DNA of 39,528 nt from Terriglobales bacterium (GCA_035543035.1 DATKKH010000142.1:1-39528), one strand, 5' to 3'. Positions 3 to 39,383 are shown, counted from the first letter of the stretch. Translations and numbers: made by a program. The notes: a model not told the origin generated them from the sequence alone.

Positions 3-890
3 GCTGGTTTTCGCATCTCAAGGGCTCAAAGGGCATTGGGTCACAAAAGCGATTTTGCAATTTTCCGTCCTTCTTTTTCTGGGTTTCCGGCTGATTTCAT
101 TTTGAAAGGTGATGAAGAAGAATGGTCCCGGGCTAAAAGATTTTCCTTCTTCTTTAAATGTCTGTGGAATTATGACATTTTCCATTTTCACGCAGAATCG
201 ATCTTCGCCGCAGAGTTTAAGGATATCCCCTTATTAAAAAAACTGGGCAAAAAGGTCGTATTTCATTTTCACGGAAGCGAAATCAGAGGTAAAAAGATGC
301 ATCCCCGGATTAAACTGGCTGATGCCAGGCTGGTTTCGACTCCGGATCTTCTGCAGGAGGTGCCAGATGGCATCTGGATACCCCAGCCAGTGGATCTGGA
401 ATTCTGGAAGCCTCGACCTTCTGCTCTGCCCAAAGAGAACCTGGTCTTGATCCATGCTCCTACCAGCAGAAAGATAAGCGGAACCGATTACATCATCTCC
501 GTAGTTGAAGATTTAAAAAAAGAAGGATACAAATTAGAGCTTCGGCTTATCGAGGGGATGCCTTACGAGAGCTTAAAAGAACTTTATCATCAGGGTGATA
601 TCTTCATCGACAAGATAATTCTGGGAATCTATGGAACTATTGCAGTAGAGGGGATGGCTCTTAAAAAGCCGGTTTGTGTTTTTATCGATGAGAAGCTTTT
701 AAATTCCTACCCGGCGGAGCTTCCGGTAATGAATACTAACCCGGACAACCTGAAGCAGAACCTCAGGAAACTAATCGAGGATGAAAGCTTAAGAAGAAAA
801 TTAGGCGAACAAGGAAGGGCATATGCAGAGAAATATCACGACGTCAGAAAAGTAGCTGAAAAATGCCTTTCCATCTATCAGGGCATTTGA
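3..890 (+). CDS. glycosyltransferase, GT1/GT4-like, 5' end cut by the window edge
   Basis: The frame is open from nt 3, with no stop upstream of the tool's TTG at 36, so the gene is partial. It has a GT-B style C-terminal region (...AVEGMALKKPVCVF...). The stop lies 1 nt before the next start. Confidence 0.55.
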   Translation, partial: AGFRISRAQRALGHKSDFAIFRPSFSGFPADFILKGDEEEWSRAKRFSFFFKCLWNYDIFHFHAESIFAAEFKDIPLLKKLGKKVVFHFHGSEIRGKKMHPRIKLADARLVSTPDLLQEVPDGIWIPQPVDLEFWKPRPSALPKENLVLIHAPTSRKISGTDYIISVVEDLKKEGYKLELRLIEGMPYESLKELYHQGDIFIDKIILGIYGTIAVEGMALKKPVCVFIDEKLLNSYPAELPVMNTNPDNLKQNLRKLIEDESLRRKLGEQGRAYAEKYHDVRKVAEKCLSIYQGI

Positions 891-891
891 G

Positions 892-2397
892 ATGTATAAA
901 ACCTTTAAGACCATAATAAAGCACACTGCTATTTACAGTACCTCGGACCTCTTAGCCAAGGCTGTGGGCTTTTTTCTTCTGCCGATTTATACCCGCTATT
1001 TAAGTCCGGCCGACTACGGTATCCTGGAGCTTCTGGCAGTAACTTTGAACATCATAATAATCCTGGTTCAGCAGGGGATGCAAACCTCTTTTTTCCGGGC
1101 TTATTCTTTTGATTATAAGGATAAGGCAGAGGAACAGAGGTCAGTGGTCAGTACCTCTTATTTGTATCTTCTCATCTCTTCTTTTTTTTTCCTGGGCGGA
1201 ATCTCTCTTTTTTCCAGGCCGATAAACAACCTTCTTTTTCAGTCTAAAGATTATACTCTTCTGGTTAGGCTGACTTTTTTGACCGGTTTTTTCAATACCC
1301 TGACCAATATCCCCTTTCAGCTTTTCAGGGCTAAGCTCCAGTCAGTCAGATTCAGTCTGGTCTCCATATTCAGATTCGTCTTAAACGTTTCATTCAATAT
1401 ATATTTCATTTTGAAACTAAAGTTAGGATTAAGCGGGGTGGTATATGGAAATCTGTGCACTGCCTTTCTGGTTTCCATACTGTTGTTCATCCTGGTCGGG
1501 AAAAATCTTTCCTTCAAGCTCTCCTGGTCAAAGTTAAAGGGGATGCTCAGCTATGGAATGCCTCTGGTGCCCGGAGCCCTCTCTTTCTGGGTTTTGACAG
1601 TTGCCGACCGGTATCTTCTGGAAAGGCTCTCCTCTACTACCGAGTTAGGCTTGTATTCTCTGGGAATTAGATTTTCAGGAATTCTGGAGTTCCTTCTAAT
1701 CCAGCCTTTTCTAACCACCTGGCCCTCGATCTATTTCCCCCTGGCACTAGAGAAGGATGCTAAGGCGACATTTTCTCGTTTGACCACTTATTTCCTTTTA
1801 ATCGGCTGTTTTTTCAGCCTGAGCATAATCGCCATATCTAATCCTGCCATTAAAGTTATGGCAGATCCTAAATTCTGGGTCGCTTACAAGGTCATACCTG
1901 TTTTGGTGCTGTCGACTCTGTTGTATGGTTTATTCAGCCTGCTGAACATCGGCATATTCATCCAGAATAAAACCAAATACAACCCACTTATTATTGGAAT
2001 CGCGGCAGTCTTTAATGTTCTGCTCAACTTTATCCTGATACCCCGCTACGGTATGCTGGGTGCGGCATTTTCCATATTTTTTTCCTATTTACTGATGAAT
2101 CTTCTTGCATATCTCATCAATCTCAGGATTTATCCCATATTTTACGAGGGGATTAGAATTCTGAAGATAATCGCGGTCACAGCCTTGTTCCTCCTGGTTT
2201 TCAGCCGCCTGCAGGTCAGCTCCTGGAAAAAGGAATTGCTCTTCAAAGCGATTATCCTTCTTTTTTTCCCTCTGGTTTTGTGGGCGACAGGTTTCTTTGC
2301 TCCGGGCGAGCTTAAGAAAGCGAAGGATTTTATTTTGGAGTTTCTCGAAAAGCTCGGGCTTGAAAAGGCTTACCGCTTAATTTTTAATAAGAGATGA
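892..2397 (+). CDS. wzx: Wzx-type oligosaccharide flippase (MOP/polysaccharide biosynthesis protein family)
   Basis: 501 aa, about 12-14 hydrophobic helices. The N-terminus (AIYSTSDLLAKAVGFFLLPIYTRYLSPADYG) is typical of PST flippases. The stop overlaps the next start (ATGA at 2394-2397). Confidence 0.8.
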   Translation: MYKTFKTIIKHTAIYSTSDLLAKAVGFFLLPIYTRYLSPADYGILELLAVTLNIIIILVQQGMQTSFFRAYSFDYKDKAEEQRSVVSTSYLYLLISSFFFLGGISLFSRPINNLLFQSKDYTLLVRLTFLTGFFNTLTNIPFQLFRAKLQSVRFSLVSIFRFVLNVSFNIYFILKLKLGLSGVVYGNLCTAFLVSILLFILVGKNLSFKLSWSKLKGMLSYGMPLVPGALSFWVLTVADRYLLERLSSTTELGLYSLGIRFSGILEFLLIQPFLTTWPSIYFPLALEKDAKATFSRLTTYFLLIGCFFSLSIIAISNPAIKVMADPKFWVAYKVIPVLVLSTLLYGLFSLLNIGIFIQNKTKYNPLIIGIAAVFNVLLNFILIPRYGMLGAAFSIFFSYLLMNLLAYLINLRIYPIFYEGIRILKIIAVTALFLLVFSRLQVSSWKKELLFKAIILLFFPLVLWATGFFAPGELKKAKDFILEFLEKLGLEKAYRLIFNKR

Positions 2398-3767: not shown

Positions 3768-4802
3768 ATGCTGAAGACATTTTTTAAAAAGATAATCAAA
3801 TCCATTCTGGTGAAATTGAATCTCATTCGCCTTTTTTACCTTTTCGCACCTCAGGGGAGATTGGTTATCCTTAACTACCACCGGATTAGCGAGAAGCAGG
3901 AAGAAAAATCTTTAAGCGCTTTTGAGATAGGAGTCACCCGTGAGAAATTTGAAAAGGAGATGAGATATCTCAATAGGAACTTCTCGATCATCCCCTTTTC
4001 AAGCGCAATCAAGCTTTTGAAAAACGGGGGCGATTGGCCCAGGCTCCCGGTGGTAATAAGTTTCGATGACGGTTATAGAGATATCTACCTTAATGCTTTT
4101 CCCGTCCTGGAGAAATTTAACCTGCCCGCCATTGTTTTTATCTCCACCCGTATGGTGGAAAAAGGAGACCCTTTCTGGTGGGATGAGTTGGAGAGTCTGA
4201 TTGAGCACAACCACCTGGAGGAGATTAAACTGGCTCTGAAAAACTGCTCTTCCCCGGAATATGATCTGGACCTGGGGAAGGTTGTTGCGATACAGGATAA
4301 AAGAGTTTTCCTTGAGAACTTAATCGAGCAGATTAAAAAGATCAAAGGCAGGTATCGGGATGAGCTGTTGACTAAACTCAGACCCCTTTTGAAATCGGAA
4401 AAAGAGGTAAAAAGAGAAGTCCTATCCTGGGATGAGATCAAAAAGCTGAGAAAAAACCGGATCGAGTTCGGCTCTCACACCCATAATCATTATCTGCTGA
4501 CTTTTGAGGATCAGAAGACGATTATCGAAGAGCTGAAAATCTCCAGGCAGAAACTGGAGGAGAACCTGGCAGAGAAAATCGAATTTTTATCTTACCCCAG
4601 CGGTCTGTCTAATCCGGAGATAGAAAAATCAGCTAAGGAATTCGGGTATAAGGCAGGCTGTTCGAATTCTTATGGTTTTAATCACAAAGGAACAGATTTT
4701 TTTTACTTGAAGCGTTTGAGCTTGGAAGAATCCCAGAGCTTGGATGATTTCAAAATCTCCCTGGGCAGGCTTTTTGGTGCTTTGCCTTTTTTAAAAGATT
4801 AA
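3768..4802 (+). CDS. polysaccharide deacetylase (NodB/CE4 domain) with N-terminal membrane anchor
   Basis: NodB motifs are present: VISFDDGYRD, FGSHTHNHYLL, LSYPSG. The N-terminus is hydrophobic. Confidence 0.8.
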   Translation: MLKTFFKKIIKSILVKLNLIRLFYLFAPQGRLVILNYHRISEKQEEKSLSAFEIGVTREKFEKEMRYLNRNFSIIPFSSAIKLLKNGGDWPRLPVVISFDDGYRDIYLNAFPVLEKFNLPAIVFISTRMVEKGDPFWWDELESLIEHNHLEEIKLALKNCSSPEYDLDLGKVVAIQDKRVFLENLIEQIKKIKGRYRDELLTKLRPLLKSEKEVKREVLSWDEIKKLRKNRIEFGSHTHNHYLLTFEDQKTIIEELKISRQKLEENLAEKIEFLSYPSGLSNPEIEKSAKEFGYKAGCSNSYGFNHKGTDFFYLKRLSLEESQSLDDFKISLGRLFGALPFLKD

Positions 4803-6006: not shown

Positions 6007-6244
6007 GAAGCATTTGAAAAGAGAATTATATTGAAGGATTTTTGTTGTTGCTCATATTTTGACGAAATCGCTGAACCGGTTATGTCACAGAAGGTTAGAT
6101 AAGCTGAAAGGTTACCTTAGTCCATTTTGTGCAGAAATTGAGCAGCTTAGAACGTTGATACGCGGTTGACTATGCTGTGTCTGAATAACTTATGAAATGG
6201 CATACACTTTGCATACAAGAATATTATTCATCAGGAGGAAAAGC

Positions 6245-8809
6245 ATGCTAAGAAAAAAGCGTTGTCTCTTGTCATTTGTTTTAATTATATTTTTTCTTTT
6301 TAGTTTGAATGCTTTTGCCAAAGGACCTACCCACCCCTCAGTCAATACTTTTTCCCATAGTGCTCCTGGTCAGTACGATGTTCCGGATTCCTGGACTCAG
6401 TGGCTGAACCTGCATACGGACTGGGCTACTTCGGGACCACCTTGGTATTTCCCATATTTCAACCGAAACCAGCCGGTGGGTGATTATTATAATGTCCACC
6501 ATCAGGAGCCCGGAGCAGAGGATTATAATAGCCTGGTTCAGTGGTTCACCGGCAAGGGATACAGAAAAGAAACTGCCTTTGCTCACTGGAAAGTAAATAC
6601 TACCCAGAGTTATGACGGCGAGACCAGGCTGATCCCGGGATGGGATCCGGCCAACGATGCCAATGGAGACGGGATAAGGGACTACCCGGCAGATTACGGC
6701 TACATAGGCCAGTTCACCGTGGGCACCAACTGGATCCGTCATTCGGGTAAGAACTGGACCGCCAATACCTGGCAGAACGACTATGTAAAATTAGGCTGGT
6801 GGGACGACCCGGATACGGTCTCCTTTACAGTTACCAGAAACAGCCGGGATACGATCTTCGTCAACGGAACTATCCCCTCACATACTTATTATTTCTACAT
6901 AGTTGACGACCGTTCTGCCCCTGACCATAATGCAGTTGCCATGTCGGACAGCTTGGCCCATATCTGCGTTTATTACTGGACCCAGATAGCGGTGAATATA
7001 ACCCATCCGGAGGTGAAAAAATGGACTGGACACTATTGCGCTGAAAGGATGCGAAGCTGGAGAAGCTCCTATTCTGGCCCGGTAGCCGTGTTCCACGATA
7101 ACATCTGGGATATGATCCCGACCGAGATGTTAGGAAGAGCACTTTACCAAAACGTCCCTACTTATGGCGGGGTGATGTTAGAGGCTATGCAAAGTAATCT
7201 TGATTTCTCCAACAATTTTAAGGATTGTCTGAAATCGATAAAAGATAGCCTTACCGCATTCGTGTCCGGACAGACTTACCTGATAGGAAATGTGGGCAAC
7301 TACTCCAGCGAGTCTTTTGATACCCTTTTAAGAAGGTGTGATGGCGTTTGGTATGAGAGGTGGACCGGCATTGACCAGCCCCTGGGAACTTTTGAAGAAC
7401 ATAAAGCCGCAGTGGAAAGACACCAGGCTATGGGCAAGTATACATTCTTAAATATGTGCGGAGATGGGGACCTGATAGGATTGGGCGACCGGGACAAGAA
7501 CTTTTCCCTCGCAAGCTACTACATAACTTATGATGATAAAAGCTATTATCTTTTCGACACCAGCCCCAGTTACGGAGTAAAGTTAGCTGACACTACGAAC
7601 TGGTGGTACGGTTCCATTAGTGCGGACCTGGGAACACCTGTGGCTGCGGCTTATACCCTCGCTTCAGGATATATCTGGAGAAGAGATTTTACCAAAGGGG
7701 CGGTCTTGTTTAAGCCCAGACCGGATGGCGGCTCCAATTACACTGATAGCACTTTGGTAAGTTTGGGGGGATATTATTACCGTTTGGATACAGGGGGAAA
7801 AAAGTCTCCGTCTGACTCTTTGAACCGGGTCTATGTGAAGAATGCCGAGGGAGTCATTCTGATAAAGACCAGTTCCCAGAGCCAGACCCAGCTTGATCCT
7901 CCCCTGCCTCTTTCTCCTACAAACGGCTCTACTGTGGATACTACCCAGCCGACCCTGATCATACAAAATGTCCAGGATTCAGCCGGCAGGCCCATACTAT
8001 ATTATTTTGAGCTGGACACAGCCACTCAGTTTGCTTCACAGAAAAAAAAGGAATCAACCCCTTTTGAGTTGGAAGCGGGTCAGGACAGTACAACCCGCTG
8101 GACTGTCCCGACTCCGCTCTCCTCTGGAGTTTATTACTGGAGAAGCCGGGCTTATACTAATACTTATCCCAGCGACACCAGCCAGCCTACTCCAGTTTAT
8201 CATTTCCAGCTCTCCACCAGCGTAGGGGATTCGATATATACTCTTTTTCTCCCTTCCCCGGTTGGTGATGAGCAGGTGGTTACTCTTAGACCAACTCTCA
8301 ATGCCCAATTCATCCATAATGGTTTTGATCGGAGCCAGATCCGGGTAAAATTTCTGGTAGGCGAGGATCCTTCATTTAATCCTGGCAGGACAATCTTCTC
8401 TCCTTACATCGATATACCGGATAACCTCACGCTATTCTGGACCCTGGACCGGGATTTACAGGAGGGCAGAAGATATTTATGGAGGGTAAACGTTTATGAT
8501 CAGGATGTCTTGGTTGCAGCCAGCGATCCCGCCTCTTTTTTGACTGGCTCAATCCACGTTTTCCCTAATCCGTTCAAGCCTTCAGCGGGCGATAATTCTA
8601 TAACCTTCAGGAATATCCCTCTCTATTCAAAGATACAGATTACGACCTTATCCGGAGAGTTAGTTCGGGAGCTTACCGGTAACTCTTCGACCGACGTGGT
8701 CTGGGATGCAAAGAATAAGGAGGGCAGGGACTTAGCCTCAGGGGTTTATTATTACCGGGTCGATTTCCAGTCCGGCAGCTCTACTGGAAAGTTAGCTATA
8801 ATCCGATAA
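6245..8809 (+). CDS. secreted multidomain protein: possible TIM-barrel glycoside-hydrolase-like N-domain, two tandem beta-sandwich repeats, FlgD-Ig/T9SS-type C-terminal domain
   Basis: I prefer the ATG at 6245, which has AGGAGG 6 nt upstream and gives the signal peptide MLRKKRCLLSFVLIIFFLFSLNAFA/KG. There is a DxNxDGxxD Ca-loop (DANGDGIRD). The C-terminus (FPNPFKPS...ASGVYYYRV...KLAIIR) matches the FlgD-Ig/Por-secretion-tail pattern. Confidence 0.75.
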   Translation: MLRKKRCLLSFVLIIFFLFSLNAFAKGPTHPSVNTFSHSAPGQYDVPDSWTQWLNLHTDWATSGPPWYFPYFNRNQPVGDYYNVHHQEPGAEDYNSLVQWFTGKGYRKETAFAHWKVNTTQSYDGETRLIPGWDPANDANGDGIRDYPADYGYIGQFTVGTNWIRHSGKNWTANTWQNDYVKLGWWDDPDTVSFTVTRNSRDTIFVNGTIPSHTYYFYIVDDRSAPDHNAVAMSDSLAHICVYYWTQIAVNITHPEVKKWTGHYCAERMRSWRSSYSGPVAVFHDNIWDMIPTEMLGRALYQNVPTYGGVMLEAMQSNLDFSNNFKDCLKSIKDSLTAFVSGQTYLIGNVGNYSSESFDTLLRRCDGVWYERWTGIDQPLGTFEEHKAAVERHQAMGKYTFLNMCGDGDLIGLGDRDKNFSLASYYITYDDKSYYLFDTSPSYGVKLADTTNWWYGSISADLGTPVAAAYTLASGYIWRRDFTKGAVLFKPRPDGGSNYTDSTLVSLGGYYYRLDTGGKKSPSDSLNRVYVKNAEGVILIKTSSQSQTQLDPPLPLSPTNGSTVDTTQPTLIIQNVQDSAGRPILYYFELDTATQFASQKKKESTPFELEAGQDSTTRWTVPTPLSSGVYYWRSRAYTNTYPSDTSQPTPVYHFQLSTSVGDSIYTLFLPSPVGDEQVVTLRPTLNAQFIHNGFDRSQIRVKFLVGEDPSFNPGRTIFSPYIDIPDNLTLFWTLDRDLQEGRRYLWRVNVYDQDVLVAASDPASFLTGSIHVFPNPFKPSAGDNSITFRNIPLYSKIQITTLSGELVRELTGNSSTDVVWDAKNKEGRDLASGVYYYRVDFQSGSSTGKLAIIR

Positions 8810-16334: not shown

Positions 16335-17447
16335 ATGGACCGAATTAAAAAAATCCTTCATCTCAATACTACCAGCTCCATTGGCGGAGCTGAACAAATG
16401 ATTATAGATCTGGCAGAACAAACCAGCCTCGATAAATTCAGGACTTATGTGAGCGTGCTGCGGGAAGGAGAATTACTTTCCGAGCTAAGGAGAAGACATG
16501 TGAAATTTATCTGGCTTAAGGAGAGCACCCGGGTCTACGATTATAAGTTTCTGAGAAATATCGTGGAGTTGATTAGGCAGAATCGGATTGATCTTATCCA
16601 CTCTCATACCTGGGGAACCGATTTCTATGGTTATTGGGGCTCTAAAATCTCAGGCATACCTATGATCTCAACCATTCACGATCGTTATTATATATTCGAG
16701 AAATGGACTCGGAGATTATCTTACCGGTTGTTCATAAACCACATTAAGAAGATCGTGGCTGTATCCAAAGACATCAAGGGTTTGCTTATCGATGAGCTTA
16801 AAATCAGCTCCCAAAAAGTGAGGTTGATTTACAACGGGATCAATACTCTTAAGTTTCAAACTGTAGAAAATCTAGATATGATTAGAGATGAATTAGACCT
16901 TGGCAGACACGATCTTGTCATAGGAAATGTCGGAAATCTGAGAGAAGTTAAAGATCACCGGACGCTGATCACCGCTTTCAGTAAAATAGTCCCCTTATTC
17001 CCCAGGTCAAAATTATTGATAGTTGGAGAGGGAAAACTTAAACCCGACTTGAAGAAACTTTGTGAAGAGCTGGGCTTGGGGGAGAGGGTTCTCTTCTTGG
17101 GTCACAGAGAAGATGTTCCTTTCATTTTGAGCTTATTGGATGTTTTTATCCTTCCTTCAGTTTCAGAGGGCTGCTCTCTTTCCCTCTTGGAAGCTATGGC
17201 CGCAGGAAAAGCAGTTGTCGCGACGAATGTTGGTGGGAACCCCGAGCTGGTGCTAAATGGTAAAACGGGCATCCTCGTTCCTCCATCTCAGCCAGACCAG
17301 TTAGCGGAAAAGATGATACATCTGCTTAGTAACGAGGATCTAAGAAAAAAAATGGGAGCGGAAGGCAGAAAAAGGGTCAAGCAGAAATTCTCCAGGGAGT
17401 CGATGGTAAAAAATTATGAAGAGCTTTATTCCCGGATACTGAGATGA
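16335..17447 (+). CDS. glycosyltransferase family 4 (GT-B, EX7E)
   Basis: PSVSEGCSLSLLEAMAAGKAVVATNVGGNPELV...GILVPP. It appears to be a paralog of the preceding gene. Confidence 0.85.
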   Translation: MDRIKKILHLNTTSSIGGAEQMIIDLAEQTSLDKFRTYVSVLREGELLSELRRRHVKFIWLKESTRVYDYKFLRNIVELIRQNRIDLIHSHTWGTDFYGYWGSKISGIPMISTIHDRYYIFEKWTRRLSYRLFINHIKKIVAVSKDIKGLLIDELKISSQKVRLIYNGINTLKFQTVENLDMIRDELDLGRHDLVIGNVGNLREVKDHRTLITAFSKIVPLFPRSKLLIVGEGKLKPDLKKLCEELGLGERVLFLGHREDVPFILSLLDVFILPSVSEGCSLSLLEAMAAGKAVVATNVGGNPELVLNGKTGILVPPSQPDQLAEKMIHLLSNEDLRKKMGAEGRKRVKQKFSRESMVKNYEELYSRILR

Positions 17448-22286: not shown

Positions 22287-24512
22287 ATGAATCTTCTGAC
22301 TCTGGTAGCTTCGGTCTACCTGGTCTGCGGCATAGTCCTCTTTTTTCTGGGGGTTACCATCCTTTCGGAGGATTACCGGGGAAGGCTGAACCGGATAACC
22401 AGCCTGATGCTTTTCTTTGCCGGATCAGGTCCTGTTTTTGCCGCCTTTGGAACCATTCTTAAAGCCGGAGGCCTGGCTTCTACGACTTCGGTTTTCTATA
22501 CCAATATCTTTTTTCTGTGGGAGCTTTTTTTCCCCCAGCTTCTGCTTTTCTCTCTGGTTTTCCCGGTTGAAAATCCATTTTTGAAAAAACGTCCCCGGGT
22601 TAAGATCCTGATTTTCACGCCTCACCTCTTTCGAATCCTTCTGGTTCTGTTTCTGTACCAGCCGCGCAATCTGATTAATTTCTCTTCTCTGGAAAATTTG
22701 TCCGGACCCTTGAGCGTGCTCCTTAATCCGGTAATCTATGTCCTTAAGTTCTTATCTCTGACCATCGAGATAATCTACAGATTTCATCTGCAGTTTTTCT
22801 CGGTCATAAACCTGACTTACCTTTTTCTGGCTGTCTTTTTTCTTTACCGGGGAACCCGAAACCTTGCCCAGAGCCGTCTGAAAAAACAGGCCCAGTTAGT
22901 TGCCTGGGGGATCAGGTCTTCCACCGGGCTTTATGCGTTTGCTTTTATCCTGCCGGTCCTGACCAATCTGAGGATTCCCGACACGCTCAGGTATGCGCTG
23001 ACCATCTCAGCCCTCCTGATCGGGGCTGGCTCAATTGCCTGGGCAATAATCCGCTACCGATTTCTGGATATCAGGACCTTAGTCAGACAGAGTTTAGTCT
23101 ATTCTCTGACCTCTGCTCTTCTCTTAGGAATCTATTTTCTTTTGATTACTCAGCTGAGTAATCTAATGCAGACCCTTTTAGGCCGCAGGGTCCCGATTTT
23201 GGAGATAGGGTACCTGATACTGGCGATACTTTTATTCCAGCCGATAATGGGCTGGATAGATGAGTTAGTGAAAAGATTGCTCCTTAGGGACCGGGCTGAC
23301 TTCAGAATGATGATGGAGATGTTCAGCCGCAAGATTATCTCGATTTTGAATCTGGATGAACTTAACCGCACGATTTTTGACTCCCTGAAAAAAGAGATGT
23401 TGGTGGAGGAGGTTTACCTGTGCCTGTGCGATACCAAGAATAAGAGATTTTCACTTTTATCCGAGGAAAAAAACCTTTTCTTCCCGGAAGATGACCGTTT
23501 GATCGAACATCTCAAATCACGGGAACGGCCCTTTTTCCTGGATGAAGTTGAGCCTGAAATAAAGACTCCTCTTTTGCAAACCCTTTCCGATTCAGAAGTT
23601 TTTCTGATGGTGCCGATCTACAGCTCCGAGGAGTTCATCGGCTTTTTCGGCTTAACCAAAAAAATCATCGGTTTAAAATACACTTATGAAGATCTGACCC
23701 TTTTAAAAGTTCTGGCTAACCAGTTCGTGATAGCTTATAGAAACGCCCGTCTGTATCAGGAATCTCTGGAAAAACAGAGAATTGAGGAGGAGCTTTTGGT
23801 TGCCAAAAAGATCCAGCTCGGTCTTTTGCCCAAGGCTTTTCCAAAAGGAAAGGCTTTTGAGCTTTCTGCTTTTACCCAGCCTGCATACCAGGTCGGTGGC
23901 GATTATTATGATTTCCTGGAGAGGTCGGATGGTTCCTTAGGTGTTGCCATAGCTGATGCCTCGGGCAAAGGTGTGCCTGCTGCCCTGATGGTTTCCCTTC
24001 TGCATGCATCTTTAAGAGCAATGATGAAAAATAAATTCGAGCCTTCTGAAACTATGTCCAACATCAATCAGCTCATCTCCTCCTCAGTCTCTGAGGGAAG
24101 GTTTGCCACTATGTTCTACGGAGAGTTCAATCCTCTGACCAGAAAGCTTTCCTACTGTAATGCCGGGCATAACTACCCCATCGTCATCCGCAGAGACCAG
24201 AAAGTGGAGTTCCTGAAGGCCGGGGGACTGATCTTGGGAGCATTTCCAGAGGCGAGCTATCAGATGGAGCAGATTGAATTCGAGCCTGAGGACCTGGTCT
24301 TTCTTTATTCGGATGGGCTGACTGAGAATTTCAACGAAAAACAGGAGATGTTCGGCGAAGACCGACTTTTGGAGCTTCTTTTGGAAAACCGGAGACTTTC
24401 CACCGAGGAACTAAAGGAGCTAATAGTCAAGCAGGTCGAAAATTTTGCACACGGGATTTCTCTGTATGATGATTTCACGATAGTGATATTAAAGGTTCTA
24501 AATGGGTTATGA
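22287..24512 (+). CDS. membrane-bound GAF-domain PP2C phosphatase (SpoIIE/RsbU family)
   Basis: About 300 aa of multi-pass membrane N-domain and a central GAF-like region. PP2C motifs: PAYQVGGDYYDF, IADASGKGVPAALM, LYSDGLTE, DDFTIVILK. Confidence 0.85.
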   Translation: MNLLTLVASVYLVCGIVLFFLGVTILSEDYRGRLNRITSLMLFFAGSGPVFAAFGTILKAGGLASTTSVFYTNIFFLWELFFPQLLLFSLVFPVENPFLKKRPRVKILIFTPHLFRILLVLFLYQPRNLINFSSLENLSGPLSVLLNPVIYVLKFLSLTIEIIYRFHLQFFSVINLTYLFLAVFFLYRGTRNLAQSRLKKQAQLVAWGIRSSTGLYAFAFILPVLTNLRIPDTLRYALTISALLIGAGSIAWAIIRYRFLDIRTLVRQSLVYSLTSALLLGIYFLLITQLSNLMQTLLGRRVPILEIGYLILAILLFQPIMGWIDELVKRLLLRDRADFRMMMEMFSRKIISILNLDELNRTIFDSLKKEMLVEEVYLCLCDTKNKRFSLLSEEKNLFFPEDDRLIEHLKSRERPFFLDEVEPEIKTPLLQTLSDSEVFLMVPIYSSEEFIGFFGLTKKIIGLKYTYEDLTLLKVLANQFVIAYRNARLYQESLEKQRIEEELLVAKKIQLGLLPKAFPKGKAFELSAFTQPAYQVGGDYYDFLERSDGSLGVAIADASGKGVPAALMVSLLHASLRAMMKNKFEPSETMSNINQLISSSVSEGRFATMFYGEFNPLTRKLSYCNAGHNYPIVIRRDQKVEFLKAGGLILGAFPEASYQMEQIEFEPEDLVFLYSDGLTENFNEKQEMFGEDRLLELLLENRRLSTEELKELIVKQVENFAHGISLYDDFTIVILKVLNGL

Positions 24513-31073: not shown

Positions 31074-31085
31074 ATCAGAAAAAAT

Positions 31086-31195
31086 GGCTGTAGCAGGTTT
31101 CTTCCTTCATCACCCAGGGAAATTATCCTCTGAATCTGATTCTGAAGTTCCCTCACATTCCCGGGCCAGGTATAATGAGTGAACGATCGAGGATT
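31086..31195 (-). pseudogene. remnant of a sigma-54-dependent transcriptional activator (NtrC-family AAA+ C-terminal fragment)
   Basis: The minus-strand translation reads ...NPRSFTHYTWPGNVRELQNQIQRIISLGDEG..., containing the diagnostic WPGNVREL motif. An in-frame TGA (31196-31198) lies immediately upstream and there is no AAA+ core. A frameshifted continuation (..GKLGSEILDRSLI..) may extend to about 31225. Confidence 0.55.
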
Positions 31196-31249
31196 TCACT
31201 CCCCAATTTTCCGTTACCATTGTCAGAGTAAGACTAGTAAAGTGATTCA

Positions 31250-31687
31250 CTAAAGGACGGTGATACCTATACCAATTTTATAATTAATGATGTCGGCCCT
31301 ACTCACAGGTGGGGCTAAGGGCAATTTCAGAGATGGCCTCATTAAAATATTGTTATATTCAATGCCAGCCAGAATAAAAAGTTCTCCCAGTTTCAGTTGC
31401 AATCCAGTGCCTACCAGAAAACCCGGATAAGTTTCAGACACATTTCTAATCTCCCACTGAAAATGCCATTGGCTATCAAACTGAGGAAAAGGATATTCCA
31501 CGCTTAGATGATAAACGCCGCCACCCATCTCCACAAAAGGTGTGATGGCACCTTTTCCTACATTCGTCTTCGCGTAGAAAACCGCAGCTGTCCAATCCCA
31601 GTCAGCGAAATGGCTCCTTTGCATGCCACCGGGATCAGTTAAAAATACCCATTCATTTCCCCTTAAAGGCAAACTCTCTATTTGCAA
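31250..31687 (-). CDS. beta-barrel OMP-like fragment with no ATG start and no signal peptide (possibly a truncated gene)
   Basis: Alternating hydrophobic beta-strand pattern (..YKIGIGITVL end). The tool start is TTG. The frame is open up to the TAA of the upstream 79-aa gene and contains no ATG and no signal sequence. Confidence 0.3.
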   Translation of the reverse strand: MQIESLPLRGNEWVFLTDPGGMQRSHFADWDWTAAVFYAKTNVGKGAITPFVEMGGGVYHLSVEYPFPQFDSQWHFQWEIRNVSETYPGFLVGTGLQLKLGELFILAGIEYNNILMRPSLKLPLAPPVSRADIINYKIGIGITVL

Positions 31688-31738
31688 TCCTAAACGAAAA
31701 GTGAAATAAGAAGTTTTTTTGAAGCTGCCACAAACTGT

Positions 31739-31978
31739 TTACACCTTGATTACCCCAGTAACTCCGAATATTGCTATAATTAGACCTACTATCCCGAGAA
31801 GACCTAGATATCCAAGGTCTTTTTTCATATAACGGAAATTAGTGAAGAAGGCGAAAAAGCAGAAGTTAAACAGGTAGTAGGGGTCGTGGCGGACAAACGC
31901 CATAAAACCATAGAGTCCTAGGAGGCCAAAGATGCCATGTAAAATCTTGTCTTTCCTGCGTTCCTTGTCTTCATTCAT
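31739..31978 (-). CDS. 79-aa hydrophobic membrane protein (about 3 helices), unknown function
   Basis: Strong SD (AAGGAGAGGAGA, 7 nt from the ATG). Gly/Phe-rich helices: ILHGIFGLLGLYGFMAF, LFNFCFFAFF, LGLLGIVGLIIAIFGV. It lies 53 nt downstream of the SPASM ORF. Confidence 0.6.
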   Translation of the reverse strand: MNEDKERRKDKILHGIFGLLGLYGFMAFVRHDPYYLFNFCFFAFFTNFRYMKKDLGYLGLLGIVGLIIAIFGVTGVIKV

Positions 31979-32031
31979 GACGGTATCTCCTCTCCTTATT
32001 AAGAAAGTTGTTGATCATAAGGCCAAAAAAA

Positions 32032-32418
32032 TTATCTACTTTTAAAGATAGTAGTATCTCTGGAAGGAAGGATACATCCGATATGATTCTTTTTTTCATC
32101 TTTTGGCTTGTCAAACTCAAACCAGTTACCTAAGTCTTGAGATCTGGCCCAGCTGCATAGTACACCTGTTCGCTCCAGGACATAGATAGACTTGATAAAA
32201 CAAAAGTTGCAGTATGCTTGGTATGGGCAATCTGGGCAGAGCTGAGGTGTTGGTTCCCTAAGCTTGGAAAGATAGCTCACTATCGGTTTTTGAAAAATTT
32301 CATCAATTGAGCTGTTTAACATATTCCCAAGTGCTAAGTAGGTTTCCGGCAGTAACGGACAGGGCCTAACTACTCCAGTTGGTCCCAATACACAACTCTT
32401 ATACCCCGCTCCACAATT
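32032..32418 (-). CDS. SPASM domain (auxiliary 4Fe-4S cluster region) of the radical SAM maturase, in frame with the upstream ORF after one TGA
   Basis: The translation directly after the TGA is NCGAGYKSCVLGPTGVVRPCP...LCPDCPYQAYCNFCF...GVLCSW, which is a SPASM 7-Cys pattern. The tool's TTG start (32388) would remove the first Cys (CGAG). Confidence 0.7.
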   Translation of the reverse strand, partial: NCGAGYKSCVLGPTGVVRPCPLLPETYLALGNMLNSSIDEIFQKPIVSYLSKLREPTPQLCPDCPYQAYCNFCFIKSIYVLERTGVLCSWARSQDLGNWFEFDKPKDEKKNHIGCILPSRDTTIFKSR

Positions 32419-33450
32419 TCACCTCTTTAAAAAGTGTTCAATTTGGTCTTCTTTGAGCTGAAACAAAAAGTTCCCATATCTTTCGTGTAGGTATTTTGGA
32501 AGCTCCTCAAGTTTCTTGAGGTGCACTGGGCTCCAACTTAGACGTAAGTCCTTAGCTCGCCCTACATCAGTTATTGGAGAATAAGAGAACATATAAGCAC
32601 CACATTGCTTTGCAATCTGTAGAGTATTCTCAATATCATTTACATTAGAGGGTACGACATTCATAGCCACCTTCACCAATATATTATCCCTTGCCAAAAA
32701 TTCAATACCTTTTTTTGCCTTTTCGAAACAGCCTGGAACTCCTCTTAGGCCATCGTGAACAACGGCTGTCGAACCGTCTAAATCGATCTGAACCATCAAT
32801 TTATTTTTGTACTTCGCGATCCCCTTAGCCACTGTCTTGTCAACTAAGGTTCCATTTGTCAAGATGGAGACTAGAATAAAACGTGTTCCGCAGAAATCGA
32901 CAATCTCTAAGAAGTCCGGGTGAAGCAAAGGTTCTCCACCTGTAAGCTCAACGATCCTTATGCCATTTTCAAGGAGTGTATTCAGACACTTTAAAAGCTG
33001 AGTAGTAGAGAGTCGTTGATATTTTCGAACGTCGCTCTCGTTATAACAATAAATACATTTTAAATTGCATTGAGAGGTCAGCTCTATTGAGAAATGTACA
33101 GGTATGAAATATTGTCTTCTGCCGGTGACTCTCATTTTTCTATAAGAAGGCTCATCCTCCGTTCCAATGATGCCTCGTTTAATTGATTCTTCTAGAAAAC
33201 CTGTGATCGCTTTTAGGCTCATTTCCTTTCTTTGTAGTCTCTGCAGCAAATTTTGTTTAGTTAAACCTTCGTTACATTCCAATAGTATATCTGTTCCTAA
33301 TGAGTTGACGTAGTGTAGATTGGTTTTGAGAAAATCAAGTGTTCTATATCGGGCTTCCGAACTTTCCTGGAAAACTAAAGTCTCATCAGGAGTTAGATGA
33401 ATTTCTGTTCCTTCGCACAAAGTGAGATATTTCTGTTCGCATCCGACCAT
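32419..33450 (-). CDS. radical SAM peptide maturase core with N-terminal PqqD-like RiPP recognition element (ends at the in-frame TGA 32419-32421)
   Basis: CX3CX2C at C128/C132/C135 (SQCNLKCIYCY) and the ELTGGEPLL SAM motif. N-terminal ~100 aa fit an RRE pattern (YVNSLGTDILLECNEGLTKQNLLQRL...ITGFLEESIKRGIIG). SD is AAGGAG, 5 nt from the ATG. Confidence 0.85.
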   Translation of the reverse strand: MVGCEQKYLTLCEGTEIHLTPDETLVFQESSEARYRTLDFLKTNLHYVNSLGTDILLECNEGLTKQNLLQRLQRKEMSLKAITGFLEESIKRGIIGTEDEPSYRKMRVTGRRQYFIPVHFSIELTSQCNLKCIYCYNESDVRKYQRLSTTQLLKCLNTLLENGIRIVELTGGEPLLHPDFLEIVDFCGTRFILVSILTNGTLVDKTVAKGIAKYKNKLMVQIDLDGSTAVVHDGLRGVPGCFEKAKKGIEFLARDNILVKVAMNVVPSNVNDIENTLQIAKQCGAYMFSYSPITDVGRAKDLRLSWSPVHLKKLEELPKYLHERYGNFLFQLKEDQIEHFLKR

Positions 33451-33475
33451 TTTTTCTCCTTTCCCTTTCTATAGC

Positions 33476-33499
33476 AAAGCCTCCAACATAGGAGGCTTT
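33476..33499 (-). promoter_or_regulatory. intercistronic stem-loop between the precursor and maturase genes
   Basis: Minus strand: AAAGCCTCC-tatgtt-GGAGGCTTT, a perfect 9-bp stem. It lies 30 nt after the precursor stop and 25 nt before the maturase ATG. The only downstream T-run is the TTT at the base of the stem. Confidence 0.55.
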
Positions 33500-33529
33500 G
33501 GTTGACTCGATTATGACATCTCTGTCAGC

Positions 33530-33718
33530 TTAAAACGGAGTAGGAAGGGCGCCAACAAGAGCATAAGCCAAAGTTGCTCTGTAAGTTGTATAGCTTTTCA
33601 CAGTCGGCTGATTATCTCCGCAAGCGTTGCAGAATTCACAAATAAAACAGGATGCACAAAGACCACAAGCCATAAGCTCAGTCGATGGTGGCTCTATGTA
33701 TCTTGGTTCATCTGTCAT
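33530..33718 (-). CDS. Cys-rich RiPP precursor peptide candidate (62 aa, six Cys in strict C-x-x periodicity)
   Basis: MTDEPRYIEPPSTELMACGLCASCFICEFCNACGDNQPTVKSYTTYRATLAYALVGALPTPF. It has a near-consensus SD (AAAGGAGGTGA) upstream and lies immediately upstream of, and co-oriented with, the RRE-rSAM-SPASM gene. Confidence 0.8.
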   Translation of the reverse strand: MTDEPRYIEPPSTELMACGLCASCFICEFCNACGDNQPTVKSYTTYRATLAYALVGALPTPF

Positions 33719-33752
33719 CTCTAACTCACCTCCTTTTAGATTTTATTTTTTC

Positions 33753-33811
33753 GCTCCGCCCAGGCCCCCTCTACCCAGGGCGTTAGAGCCTTTCGGCCCG
33801 CAGGGCGGAGC
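33753..33811. repeat. 59-nt GC-rich inverted repeat (GCTCCGCCC...GGGCGGAGC) upstream of the precursor gene
   Basis: 9-bp terminal arms GCTCCGCCC / GGGCGGAGC with nested GC pairs inside. It shares the GGGCGGAG/CTCCGCCC arms with the hairpin at 25191-25213. On the plus strand it is followed by TTTTGTTG. Confidence 0.6.
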
Positions 33812-33860
33812 TTTTGTTGCGCCAGAAAAGAACTGAGGGGGTAAAAACCAACCGGCTGAT

Positions 33861-33869
33861 ACTATAACA
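33861..33869 (-). promoter_or_regulatory. extended -10 promoter candidate (TGTTATAGT) for the precursor/maturase operon
   Basis: The minus strand reads TGTTATAGT, close to TGnTATAAT. No good -35 element. It would give a ~135-nt leader containing the GC-rich hairpin. Confidence 0.3.
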
Positions 33870-34165
33870 AAAAGTATGCCGATCCGATTTTCTATGTTCG
33901 AAACTGTTTAACTTGTTGAAAAATAAAGAAGTCAATCTTTGGTGGATTTGCTTGATGAGGCTTTGTAGAAATGAAAAATCTCAAAAAATGGAGAGCCATT
34001 CTCCAAATCTGGAGAGTCGATATTGGATTTCCTTATTTTGATGTGGAGAAAAGTAGTCCGTAGAGTTCCTAATATAATGATAATGTAACTTTGGGCAGGA
34101 GAAGCTCCGCAGTCTCGTCAAAATAAGTGAACTTGAGGAGTATAATGAGTCTGATGTAAAAAAGG

Positions 34166-34196
34166 AAAAGACCACCCAGGAGCCGGGTGGTCTTTT
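34166..34196. terminator. bidirectional intrinsic terminator
   Basis: AAAAGACCACCC-aggagcc-GGGTGGTCTTTT. U-tracts follow on both strands (plus: TTTTGATT; minus: TTTTCCTTTTTTAC). Confidence 0.75.
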
Positions 34197-34244
34197 GATT
34201 AGGAGGTGCTAATTGTCGTAACAAAAAGCAACTAATCTAAGTTA

Positions 34245-34325
34245 CTATTGTCCGCCAGCAGATGATAAAGGAGCAATCTTCTCCTCTAACTCCTCCACCT
34301 CCAGGATTAATTCTTTCAGCTCCAT
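34245..34325 (-). CDS. 26-aa acidic, leader-peptide-like small ORF (MELKELILEVEELEEKIAPLSSAGGQ)
   Basis: Below the ORF-track size cutoff. SD is TAAGGAGGAGGTGA, ending 5 nt before the ATG at 34325. It has double stops (TAG TAA) and the strong terminator lies 48 nt downstream. Confidence 0.5.
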   Translation of the reverse strand: MELKELILEVEELEEKIAPLSSAGGQ

Positions 34326-34437
34326 AGAATCACCTCCTCCTTATGTTCAAAATCTGAGCAATCGAAGATAAAAAAATTTCCTGCCTTTTTAGGATCGACT
34401 AAGTTGCTAAATCGACCTCACCTTTAGAAATCCGTTT

Positions 34438-34623
34438 TCAAAAAGCGAGCGGATGGGGATAGTTATAATGCAAAACTACCCAGCTAATTACATCCCTCTC
34501 CTCAACCATTAATCTAACCCTGTGATAAGTCTTGTCAAGCAAAATCTGATAATTTTTAAAAATTTCCTGAAGAAATAATGGACGTGCCTCAATATATTGT
34601 AAGATATCTCTGTTAATATACAA
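34438..34623 (-). pseudogene. possible degenerate ParE/RelE-like toxin remnant
   Basis: TTG start only. ..RDILQYIEARPLF.. and ..YHRVRLMVEERDVISWVVLH.. resemble the N- and C-terminal motifs of ParE-type toxins, but the middle is missing and there is no antitoxin partner. Confidence 0.25.
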
Positions 34624-34803
34624 GATATTGAGATAAAAAATTTAGCAATCAGAATACATTTTCTGGAATTTGGAAACAATTTGTGTCTCTTTATCAGGAA
34701 TCCTAAGGTCAGAAAAATCTTTCTCTGCCCGAAAACCTGGTTTGAATCAGAATTGAGAAAAGATTGTGTTATTCCTTTTTTTCAAAAAATACGTTTTAAT
34801 AAC

Positions 34804-34832
34804 TTGCTAATCTGAATAGTCGAATATATAAT
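34804..34832 (+). promoter_or_regulatory. sigma-70-like promoter for the ABC ATPase/MFS operon
   Basis: TTGCTA (34804-34809), 17-nt spacer, TATAAT (34827-34832), 19 nt before the ATG. No SD in the short leader. Confidence 0.5.
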
Positions 34833-34851
34833 TGATTAAAATATTGTAACC

Positions 34852-35946
34852 ATGCACAAACTTGAGTTAAAAGCAGTAAGCAAGCATTTCGACAAGAATC
34901 AAGTCTTGAGAGACATCAGCTTCGAGGTGGAAGAAGGCGAGTTCTTTGTGCTGGTGGGGCCCTCCGGTTGCGGCAAAAGCACTATCCTCAGGCTGATCGT
35001 GGGCTTAGAGGAGGTTTCCACAGGTGAAATCTATCTGGATGGTCTTTTGATCAATAACCTGCCTGCCAAACAAAGGGACATGGCTATGGTTTTCCAGAAC
35101 TATGCCCTGTATCCTCATTTCACGGTATTTGAGAATCTTGCCTTTCCCCTGAAACTAAGAGGATATTCAAAAGAAGAAATCAGTCTGAGAGTTAATGAGA
35201 CTGCTGAAATCCTGGGATTGGAAAAACTGCTTCAGAGAAAACCCAAGGTGCTATCCGGAGGAGAAAGACAGAGAGTTGCTTTGGGTAGGGCAATAGTCAG
35301 AAAACCAAAACTTTTTCTTTTTGATGAGCCCTTATCCAATTTAGATGCACTCCTCAGGGTCCAGATGAGGGGAGAGCTCTTGAAACTGCATAAAAGATTA
35401 AAAAGTTCAGTGGTATATGTGACCCATGACCAGTTAGAAGCCATGACCTTAGGCAACAGGTGTCTGGTCTTGAAGGAAGGGACTATCCAGCAGACTGGAA
35501 CGCCTTTTGAACTGTATAGATCACCTTCTAATATCTTTGTAGCGTCTTTCATAGGAACACCCTCGATAAATTTATTAAAAGGAGTTCTGACTCCAGCTCT
35601 GGAATTTAAATTGAGTGATAAGTATGGGTTCTCGCTACCCGAGAAATTTGAACAGAGATTAAAAAGGTTCTCCGGCAGTGAAATCTGCCTGGGAATAAGA
35701 CCTGAGGATGTCCGAATTTCTTCAGAAAAACGGAATCCAAAATTCGAGCTGGAGCAGATCGAGCCGGTTGGCGCAGAAGCTTTCCTTTATTTCAAGGTTG
35801 GAGACCAGAAATTGGTGACCAGGGAAAGAGGTTATGAAAATCTCAAGCCAGGCTTTTGCCTGGAACTGTCTTTTAACCTGGATAAAGCAGTTTTTTTCGA
35901 TTTGAAAACTGGAGAAAATATCTTTAAGGATTTGAAATCTAAATAG
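34852..35946 (+). CDS. ABC transporter ATP-binding protein, MalK/UgpC/MsmX-type (sugar importer ATPase with C-terminal regulatory/TOBE-like domain)
   Basis: Walker A GPSGCGKST, Q-loop VFQNYALYPH, signature LSGGERQRV, Walker B LFLFDEPLS, H-loop VTHD. Confidence 0.9.
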   Translation: MHKLELKAVSKHFDKNQVLRDISFEVEEGEFFVLVGPSGCGKSTILRLIVGLEEVSTGEIYLDGLLINNLPAKQRDMAMVFQNYALYPHFTVFENLAFPLKLRGYSKEEISLRVNETAEILGLEKLLQRKPKVLSGGERQRVALGRAIVRKPKLFLFDEPLSNLDALLRVQMRGELLKLHKRLKSSVVYVTHDQLEAMTLGNRCLVLKEGTIQQTGTPFELYRSPSNIFVASFIGTPSINLLKGVLTPALEFKLSDKYGFSLPEKFEQRLKRFSGSEICLGIRPEDVRISSEKRNPKFELEQIEPVGAEAFLYFKVGDQKLVTRERGYENLKPGFCLELSFNLDKAVFFDLKTGENIFKDLKSK

Positions 35947-37176
35947 ATGGAAAATTTATCTGAGAAAAACAAGGGCTCCGGCTCGATTTTCCGGAACCTG
36001 AATTTCTTTTCGATCTGGATAGGTCAAACCGTCTCAGTCATCGGCGATTTTCTTTATATGATTGCCCTGATGTGGTGGGTTCTGGAAAAAACCGGCTCAA
36101 CTGCGGCTATGGCTACTGTGGCTATTTGTTCTTCTCTGCCTGCCATAATCTTGGGACCTTTTGCAGGGACTTTTGTCGACCGGGTCGATAAAAGAAAGCT
36201 TATGATCCTGATGGACTTGGGACGGGGAATATTGATTACCATCCCCGGGGTCCTTTATTTTTTGAATCTGCTTCAGGTCTGGCACATATTCGTGATAGCA
36301 GCATTTCTTTCATCTATGTCGACCTTCTTTAATCCGGCCCTGGCTACGTTCATACCGGTGATAGTTAATAAAGAGCAGTTAGTCCGGGCTAATTCGATCT
36401 CCCAGATGAGCAGCAACATAAGCGGAATCATAGGGCCTGCATTGGGAGGAGCGCTGGTCGCCCTTTTTGGAGCCGGAATAGTGATGTTTTTGGATGCTTT
36501 GAGCTTTTTCATTTCGGTTATTGCCATATTCCTGGTTAGGGTTAAAGCTGAACAGGTTTTTCCTTCTGAGGAAAGAAAAAAATTCCTACAGGAGCTGGTG
36601 GATGGTCTGAATTTCATCCGCAAAGAGTCTGGGATACTTGGACTGGTGGTTTTATTTTCTATTCTTAATTTTTTCGTCGCCCCAGTAGGGGTCTTGATAC
36701 CCTTAATGGTCAAAAAGATATTGATGATGGGAGCAGAGGGGTTCGGAGTGCTTGGCTCAAGCATTTCGATAGGAATGGTTCTCGGCAGCCTTTTCCTGGG
36801 GATGATTGGCGGGGTGAGGAGAAAAGGCACCTTTATTATGTCGGGAATAGTTGTGGCCGGATTATTTTTGGCCCTGTTTGGGATCTCTGAATCTTTCTGG
36901 GTTTCAATCTTTCTGCTGGGTGGGTGCGGGTTCGGGCTTTCCTTCGCCAACATCTTGGTGCCGGTGGTTTTTCAGACCAAAATCCCGCATGAAAAACAAG
37001 GCAGGGTTTTCGGCACGCTTGGAACTATCAGCGGTGGCTTAAGACCTGTCTCTTTAGCTCTGATAGGAGTTATGGGTGGACTATTGCACGTCCAGATGAT
37101 TGTTTTTTTGAGCGGGGTTTTAGTTGCCCTGGGTGGATTGGCCGGTTTTTTTATACCGGGGATAAGGAAATTATAG
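35947..37176 (+). CDS. MFS transporter (EntS/MFS_3-like, 12 TM)
   Basis: 409 aa. N-terminus FRNLNFFSIWIGQTVSVIGDFLYMIALMWWV and the loop motif GTFVDRVDKRKLMI. The start abuts the ATPase stop (TAGATG). Confidence 0.85.
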   Translation: MENLSEKNKGSGSIFRNLNFFSIWIGQTVSVIGDFLYMIALMWWVLEKTGSTAAMATVAICSSLPAIILGPFAGTFVDRVDKRKLMILMDLGRGILITIPGVLYFLNLLQVWHIFVIAAFLSSMSTFFNPALATFIPVIVNKEQLVRANSISQMSSNISGIIGPALGGALVALFGAGIVMFLDALSFFISVIAIFLVRVKAEQVFPSEERKKFLQELVDGLNFIRKESGILGLVVLFSILNFFVAPVGVLIPLMVKKILMMGAEGFGVLGSSISIGMVLGSLFLGMIGGVRRKGTFIMSGIVVAGLFLALFGISESFWVSIFLLGGCGFGLSFANILVPVVFQTKIPHEKQGRVFGTLGTISGGLRPVSLALIGVMGGLLHVQMIVFLSGVLVALGGLAGFFIPGIRKL

Positions 37177-37809: not shown

Positions 37810-37813
37810 AACG

Positions 37814-38027: not shown

Positions 38028-39383
38028 ATGGAAAAAGAAAATCTAAAGATTAATCCTTCGATTTTTAAAGCTTACGATATAAGGGGTATCTATCCTCAGG
38101 AACTTAACGACAATATCGCTTATCTGATTGGCAGGGGATTTGTGCAATATCTAAAACCCCGAATGGTGTGTATCGGCAGGGATATGCGGCTCTCCTCGGA
38201 TGCCCTGTTCCAAAACCTCTCTCGCGGGATTACCCGGTCAGGTGCAGATGTGATAGATCTGGGCTTGTGCACTTCCGATGCTCTGTACTTTGCAGTTGGT
38301 AAATTCGGATATGAGGCCGGAGCCATGATTACCGCCTCGCATAATCCGCCGGAATACAATGGAATGAAGATGTGCCAAAAGGAAGCTGTTCCTCTAAGTG
38401 GCAAAGAGGGGATCGAGCAGATCAGAGAGATTATAGCCAGAGGAGATTTTTCAGCTCCTGGTAAAGAGGGCATAGTAAAGAAACAGGATATCCAGTCCGA
38501 TTATATCCGGCATCTTTTGTCATTCATCGAACCCCAGAAGATCAAACGCTTTAAAATAGTGGCTGATGCAGGTAATGGAATTGCCGGTAAGGTTTTGCCT
38601 GATTTCTTCTCCCATCTTCCCTGCAAGTTGATTCCTATGTTCTTTGAGCTGGACGGCTCTTTTCCCAATCACGTGCCCAATCCCATGATCCCGGAGAATA
38701 TGGTTCCTTTGGGGTCGAGAATCTTACAGGAGAAGGCTGATTTCGGCGTAGCCTTTGATGGGGATGCAGACCGGATGTTCTTGATGGACGAGAAGGGTGT
38801 TACTTTGGGTGGTGATATCGTAGCTGCCCTTGTGGCTAAGAGCTTGCTGAAAAAAGAAAAGGGTGCCACCATATTATATAATGTCCCCTGTTCAAGGACC
38901 GTTCGTGAGGTCATCGAGCAGAATGGAGGAAAAGCTGTTCGCACGCCAGTGGGACATGCGCTCATCAAGCCCCTGATGAAAAAATATGATGCCGTTTTCG
39001 GAGGCGAGCATTCCGGTCATTTCTATTTCCGTAAAAACTATTTTGCCGATTCTGGAATGATCGCAATTTCGGTCTGTCTGGAGCTTCTCTCCGAAGAAAA
39101 TAAGCCTCTTTCTCAGCTGGTAAGCTCCATCGACCATTATTTCAGGAGTGGTGAGATCAATTCAAGGGTGGCAGACGTCCCTAAGAAGCTTGAAGAGATC
39201 GAGTTACATTATCGGGATGGGAAAATAGACCACCTTGATGGCATAACCGTAGAATATCCTGACTGGTGGTTCAACGTTCGGCCCTCCAACACCGAGCCTT
39301 TGCTCCGCCTGAATCTGGAGGCAAACACTAGGGAGCTTTTAGATCAAAAGAAAACAGAGGTTTTAAGCCTTATTCGCTCCTGA
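38028..39383 (+). CDS. manB: phosphomannomutase/phosphoglucomutase (alpha-D-phosphohexomutase family)
   Basis: Active-site loop TASHNPPEYNGMK, metal loop FDGDADR, sugar loop GGEHSGH, phosphate loop RPSNTEP. Confidence 0.9.
   Translation: MEKENLKINPSIFKAYDIRGIYPQELNDNIAYLIGRGFVQYLKPRMVCIGRDMRLSSDALFQNLSRGITRSGADVIDLGLCTSDALYFAVGKFGYEAGAMITASHNPPEYNGMKMCQKEAVPLSGKEGIEQIREIIARGDFSAPGKEGIVKKQDIQSDYIRHLLSFIEPQKIKRFKIVADAGNGIAGKVLPDFFSHLPCKLIPMFFELDGSFPNHVPNPMIPENMVPLGSRILQEKADFGVAFDGDADRMFLMDEKGVTLGGDIVAALVAKSLLKKEKGATILYNVPCSRTVREVIEQNGGKAVRTPVGHALIKPLMKKYDAVFGGEHSGHFYFRKNYFADSGMIAISVCLELLSEENKPLSQLVSSIDHYFRSGEINSRVADVPKKLEEIELHYRDGKIDHLDGITVEYPDWWFNVRPSNTEPLLRLNLEANTRELLDQKKTEVLSLIRS

Follow-up and report, generated by a model that had tools for sequence, protein, structure and literature searches.

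The locus examined here raises the question why the gene for a radical SAM peptide maturase carries a single in-frame TGA between the part encoding its radical SAM core and the part encoding its SPASM domain. The window, i.e., the whole stretch of DNA that was analyzed, is 39,528 bp long, and a first-pass annotation of it had left four options unranked: a selenocysteine codon, programmed readthrough, a sequencing or assembly error, or very recent inactivation. The evidence favors the last of these. We consider it probable, at roughly 0.8, that the gene, which encodes an AlbA/SkfB/CteB-like RRE-radical SAM-SPASM maturase in a remnant RiPP cluster, has recently become a pseudogene by a nonsense mutation, possibly with some leakiness of the stop.

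The maturase frame (33450..32032) is on the minus strand and is composed of the following parts:

32419..33450, minus strand: 5' ORF of 343 codons plus TGA, with an N-terminal RRE-like region and a radical SAM core containing the CX3CX2C motif (C128, C132, C135)
32421..32419, minus strand: TGA at codon 344, in frame with the maturase, seen in the sequence and with the same base in a second assembly
32032..32418, minus strand: 128 further codons of the same frame, closed by TAA, in which Pfam and the homologue alignment show an entire SPASM domain and its seven conserved Cys
32388..32386, minus strand: TTG, the sole in-frame restart past the stop, with a weak AAGAG upstream and a product without Cys346

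The 5' ORF opens with ATG at 33450 and ends with ...EHFLKR-TGA at 32419. Beyond the TGA, the same frame reads NCGAGYKSCVLGPTGVVRPCP... and stays open until the TAA at 32034..32032, giving a maturase frame of 472 codons in total when the TGA is bridged. In the read-through product, Pfam places Radical_SAM (PF04055) at residues 122-278 (E 1e-21) and SPASM (PF13186) at residues 346-409, and the NCBIfam AlbA profile spans residues 90-440 unbroken across the stop. The Pfam domains and the continuous profile match indicate that the continuation is genuinely coding and did not stay open by chance. The ORF coordinates, Pfam and the AlbA profile all agree with the earlier description of one in-frame TGA dividing core and SPASM in a 472-codon frame. 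In an alignment of 119 homologues, C128, C132 and C135 of the radical SAM cluster motif are invariant, and the columns of the SPASM cysteines (C346, C364, C405, C408, C414, C417 and C432) are invariant or nearly so. The TGA is located two codons ahead of C346, the first SPASM Cys. The predicted maturase product of 343 aa thus is devoid of SPASM, a domain that is encoded in full but behind the TGA.

The codon at this position was compared with that in orthologues. A protein search yielded three uninterrupted orthologues of 469-479 aa (P0001, P0003 and P0004, with 81%, 63% and 62% identity, respectively), and a fourth and closest locus, L086 (NCBI GCA_040961595.1, 85% nucleotide identity), was reached via a precursor-peptide search. 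All four orthologues covering the site have a sense codon at position 344, i.e., GGA in L086 and L001, AAA in L002 and AGA in L003, and the UGA is conserved in none of them. The codons on both sides are otherwise kept (TTT TTA AAG AGG xxx AAY TGT GGA). Since the closest orthologues have GGA, one G-to-T change explains the TGA. Measured against the intact orthologues (469-479 aa) the stop is premature, and it is reproduced in the second assembly. Among the 119 homologues, column 344 accommodates 19 residue types (including G 38, E 18, K 12, N 8, R 7, D 7 and Cys 1), aromatic residues being accepted as well, and two positions further on Cys346-Gly347 is invariant. Scans of genome and metagenome contigs with a four-sequence alignment gave no close orthologue, the best hits being 27% and 34% identical. 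No further copies of the same locus were found by an exact-pattern scan of metagenome and genome contigs with N at the variable base.

The best NCBIfam match of the maturase is AlbA (NF012164) with 216.8 bits. This is far under the equivalog cut-off of 850 bits, so the maturase is not AlbA. Among solved structures, the best hit is SkfB (6EFN, E 5e-28), an enzyme that forms thioethers. With AlbA (subtilosin), SkfB (PDB 6EFN), CteB (PDB 5WGG), Tte1186 and PapB, the enzyme shares an N-terminal peptide-recognition region, the CX3CX2C motif and a 7-Cys C-terminal SPASM domain, and as with AlbA/SkfB/CteB-type maturases the gene adjoins a short Cys-rich precursor. What sets the window system apart is a precursor family without known relatives, a maturase motif that ends in CX2CX5CX2C, and a frame broken by a TGA ahead of SPASM. 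In CteB, the auxiliary-cluster ligands are C344/C362/C413 for AC1 and C400/C403/C409/C432 for AC2 (PMC10177961). The spacing of the SPASM cysteines encoded in the window maps onto these ligands, with Cys346 being equivalent to CteB C344 of AC1 (PMC10177961).

In the reading that we prefer, codon 344 would have changed from GGA (Gly) to TGA by a recent nonsense mutation. Termination at this codon would give a 343-aa protein in which the peptide-recognition region and the cluster that cleaves SAM are preserved, whereas all seven Cys ligands of both auxiliary [4Fe-4S] clusters would be missing. By homology with sactisynthases we infer that this product should be catalytically dead for thioether formation, and the truncated enzyme would then leave the adjacent Cys-rich precursor without cross-links.

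The state of the surrounding cluster bears on this interpretation. Its features are:

31074..34141, not stranded: 3.1-kb block with the whole RiPP remnant, which sister Zixibacteria genomes do not have at the syntenic position
33753..33811, minus strand: conserved hairpin GCTCCGCCC...GGGCGGAGC, -35 kcal/mol, between a possible sigma-54-like motif and the precursor ribosome-binding site
33530..33718, minus strand: intact precursor gene, 62 aa, Cys-rich, MTDEPRYIEPP...ACGLCASCFICEFCNAC..., with a strong Shine-Dalgarno sequence
31739..31978, minus strand: small membrane protein, 79 aa, 84% identical to a 99-aa protein of L001
31250..31687, minus strand: 145-aa ORF without family match, located where orthologues have a second small membrane protein and an ABC exporter
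31103..31247, minus strand: frameshifted 43-codon relic of a sigma-54 EBP (YSDNGNGKLGSEILD / FTHYTWPGNVRELQNQIQRIISLGDEG), equal to residues 670-712 of the 775-aa activator of L086

In L002, L003, L086 and L087, a precursor gene of 61-62 aa immediately precedes the maturase. L001 has a truncated call of 90 residues at the end of its contig, and the C-terminal part of this call is the precursor sequence. The precursors of these five loci and the window have a leader M[AT]DEP[KR]Y[IV][DE]PP, a six-Cys core ACGxCxxCFxCExCNxC and a hydrophobic Pro-rich tail. They have no match in Pfam or NCBIfam, and a search of 5.8 billion proteins returned one hit only. By its sequence, the precursor appears to represent an undescribed RiPP family, here comprising a handful of metagenomic loci. 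Every orthologous locus has the strong GCTCCGCCC...GGGCGGAGC hairpin just 5' of the precursor ribosome-binding site; in L002 and L003 its inner stem and loop differ. At 33824..33810 (TGGCGC-N5-AAGC) there is a GG-N10-GC motif that is possibly sigma-54-like, but L002 and L003 do not conserve its GG element, so that its assignment as a sigma-54 promoter is tentative. In L001, a second copy of the hairpin (about 4379..4510) lies past the ABC exporter and before a degenerate precursor start (MVDYPSGFI*), which suggests a tandem duplication of the 5' end of that cluster.

The gene order in L001 and L002 is precursor (61-62 aa), maturase, one or two membrane proteins (79-99 aa) and an ABC exporter of 582-584 aa with ABC_membrane and ABC_tran domains. 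A TPR/sigma-54 EBP gene precedes the precursor in L086 and L087, and a partial gene of that kind is present in L002. The homology of the window with L001 stops at 31740, directly after the single 79-aa gene. An ABC exporter is absent from the window cluster, tblastn and tblastx detected no relic of it in 31050-31760, and of the sigma-54 EBP the cluster holds only the relic at 31247..31103 and no intact copy. The lack of both exporter and sigma-54 activator, in addition to the broken maturase, indicates that the locus is being pseudogenised, and these two functions could be encoded elsewhere in the genome. Much of what the first-pass annotation had set out as refuting evidence was thus found, i.e., unrelated residues at the position of the stop in orthologues, a missing exporter and a regulator present only as a relic.

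Sister genomes were selected via the neighboring phosphomannomutase (84-86% identical), and the named matches were all Zixibacteria. They keep the flanks of the locus (histidine kinase, 1242-aa Ser/Thr kinase, ABC ATPase, MFS_3, Rex and PMM) and have no RiPP cluster at the syntenic site, so the cluster is dispensable in the clade. In L002, the cluster adjoins a convergent homologue of the same Ser/Thr kinase. Judging from this arrangement, the position may be ancestral, with the cluster being lost in this clade.

The age of the lesion was deduced from the selection acting on the two parts of the gene. Compared to L001, dN/dS was 0.18 before and 0.13 after the stop, and a three-taxon branch decomposition with the window, L086 and L001 gave an omega of 0.17 on the window branch versus 0.23 and 0.16 on the other two. 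The read-through protein departs from columns that are at least 90%, 80% and 70% conserved among distant homologues at 2, 6 and 9 positions, respectively. Its intact orthologues do so no less often, and every one of these departures is also found in intact P0001. Conserved columns and omega values (0.13-0.18) thus revealed neither secondary lesions nor relaxed selection inside the maturase gene. The window lineage does show more private amino-acid changes (37 vs 17), and an explanation by relaxed selection was rejected because the branch is longer and omega unchanged. This suggests that the SPASM-coding part was under purifying selection during essentially the whole branch and that the stop is very recent. 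Unrelaxed selection suits a very young lesion, and it equally suits a stop that is tolerated, e.g., by leaky readthrough. In comparison with ordinary bacterial nonsense pseudogenes in decaying BGCs, the gene is similar in having a single-base change from the orthologue sense codon that is not conserved, in the loss of accessory genes and in the existence of sister genomes without the cluster. It differs in being very young, with no secondary lesions in the gene and no rise in dN/dS.

One alternative for a UGA in frame and beside a metal-ligand Cys is that it encodes selenocysteine, here two residues ahead of the first SPASM Cys. The two weak hairpins noted earlier within 50 nt downstream are indeed present in the sequence. 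However, folds of 50, 60 and 80 nt 3' of the UGA were no better than those of dinucleotide shuffles (MFE z +0.74, +0.32 and +0.67, respectively), and the hairpin sequence is shared with the GGA-containing orthologues, where it is kept because it encodes the conserved NCGAGYKSCVLGPTG. With Rfam, no family matched in the vicinity of the UGA at E<=10, and none that is relevant was obtained for the whole window at the gathering threshold. The 39.5-kb window contains no tRNA according to ARAGORN and no SelA/SelB/SelD-like domain among its ORFs, and a literature search did not reveal a natural Sec-containing SPASM enzyme. A Sec codon is also expected to align with Cys, and column 344 does not: where the first-pass annotation had proposed to look for Cys or Sec, the orthologues have Gly, Gly, Lys and Arg, and Cys is found in only 1 of the 119 homologues, which counts against Sec. 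Bacterial selenoprotein genes have a SelB-binding SECIS hairpin directly downstream of the UGA as well as Cys homologues. The window gene resembles them in the in-frame UGA near a metal-binding Cys and in nothing else, since its orthologues have no Cys or Sec in the column, there is no significant hairpin, and the UGA is not conserved. We therefore regard selenocysteine as very improbable. That no orthologue has the UGA also means that the stop is not a programmed feature, which leaves programmed readthrough, as originally listed, without support. A genome-wide reassignment of UGA to Gly (code 25) or Trp (code 4) would leave the gene intact, and Gly is the residue at this codon in the closest orthologues. 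On the other hand, TGA terminates 14 of the 32 window ORFs, including 36..890, 892..2397, 16335..17447 and 22287..24512, with the next in-frame stop 2-31 codons further on. The chosen ORF set, of about 12,000 codons and including a 1242-codon gene, has no second TGA with a long open frame behind it. TGA thus is an ordinary stop in the window, as had been proposed from a smaller set of genes, and reassignment according to tables 4 or 25 is excluded, its odds being practically nil. Taken together, selenocysteine, code reassignment and programmed recoding at codon 344 are not supported.

Two other explanations keep somewhat better prospects. If the TGA were a sequencing or assembly error or a population variant, the functional allele would have GGA at codon 344 and the gene would be intact. 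This would agree with the rest of the maturase gene being flawless and under purifying selection, and with the origin of the sequence from metagenome assemblies. However, contig k141_2267567 (19,018 bp) of ENA assembly ERZ27256600, which matches window positions 28028-39528 at 99.98% identity over 11.5 kb, has the identical TGA and the identical 343-aa ORF call while showing two SNPs relative to the window, at 35760 and 38783. Because two consensus sequences that differ elsewhere agree at the TGA, a one-off assembly error is unlikely. Furthermore, the change is a substitution and not a homopolymer indel, and the locus has other, larger lesions. The two assemblies may share reads, and a fixed consensus error or a majority population variant is still conceivable. 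Overall, we see a slim chance for an error or variant. It is equally unlikely that the stop is real and tolerated, either by leaky readthrough of UGA-A or by reinitiation at TTG 32388 giving a radical SAM core and a free SPASM fragment that are jointly active. UGA followed by A is a relatively weak terminator in bacteria. With 19 residue types including aromatic ones at position 344, a Trp-containing readthrough product would probably work, and since this position tolerates almost any residue a small amount of readthrough could suffice. No relaxed selection is visible, and the TTG is close to the stop, with 30 nt in between (31 nt when counted from the final UGA base to the first T of the TTG). 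Against tolerance, the stop is conserved in no orthologue, and the TTG is preceded by a weak AAGAG alone, whereas the real cluster genes have strong Shine-Dalgarno sequences. The restart ORF (32032..32388) gives a 118-aa product that is without the invariant Cys346-Gly347-x-Gly349, confirming that the only restart drops the first auxiliary-cluster Cys, here the equivalent of AC1 ligand C344 in CteB (PMC10177961).

We thus maintain that codon 344 is most probably a young nonsense mutation. The main residual uncertainty is that near-cognate readthrough of the UGA could still give a little functional full-length enzyme. It would be a somewhat long shot that the UGA acts as a leaky, tolerated stop at a residue-indifferent linker, or that a SPASM fragment made by reinitiation complements the free radical SAM core, and selenocysteine is much less likely than this. 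If this were true, an uncultivated lineage of Zixibacteria would provide a natural case of attenuation at a stop codon or of a SPASM enzyme split in two. As it stands, the finding is ordinary and its consequence is mainly for annotation: the two ORFs should be described as one disrupted maturase gene, and neither as a selenoprotein nor as two separate genes. The locus is a clean case of an in-frame UGA beside a metal-binding Cys that mimics a Sec site, and the codons of the orthologues settle the question. The RiPP family itself, with its 62-aa six-Cys precursor, AlbA-like maturase, membrane proteins, ABC exporter and sigma-54 activator, may merit a study of its own, for which intact copies of the cluster, e.g., L001 or L002, are best suited.

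Several other observations were made in the window. The deposited label is 'MAG TPA: Terriglobales bacterium' (Acidobacteriota), whereas the closest named relatives of the PMM gene (38028..39383) all belong to candidate division Zixibacteria (66-85% identity), the syntenic loci are from Zixibacteria MAGs, and the GC content of the window is 43%. From these sequence comparisons, the taxonomic label or the binning of the contig looks wrong. Next to the RiPP remnant, 480 bp at 34142..34631 have no annotated gene and no Rfam match, and are about 81% identical to the sister genomes, with blocks of 100% identity longer than 90 nt. This stretch contains a 26-codon ORF (34245..34325, minus strand; MELKELILEVEELEEKIAPLSSAGGQ) preceded by a perfect ribosome-binding site, AAGGAGGAGGTGA, as well as a promoter-like TTGACA/TAGATT pair about 190 nt upstream of that ORF (near 34538/34516) and a GC-rich terminator hairpin at 34167-34195, and it may be a small-protein or RNA gene. 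Between this stretch and the gene for the ABC ATPase, the sisters carry a gene of 552-584 aa that has no Pfam domain and probably encodes a lipoprotein (L088 4830..6488, L090 4821..6575). The window has 146 bp at that place (34632..34777), which indicates that the gene was deleted in the window lineage. The MalK-like ABC ATPase gene (34852..35946) ends with TAG and is abutted in the same frame and with no gap by the gene for an EntS-like MFS_3 protein (35947..37176), an unusual pairing that is conserved in the sister genomes. At the other end of the window, an 870-aa ORF without a Pfam match (6197..8809) is located inside a polysaccharide-biosynthesis cluster that occupies 1-19.5 kb and encodes glycosyltransferases, a Wzx-like flippase, a Wzy_C ligase, deacetylases and FemAB/GNAT-like proteins.
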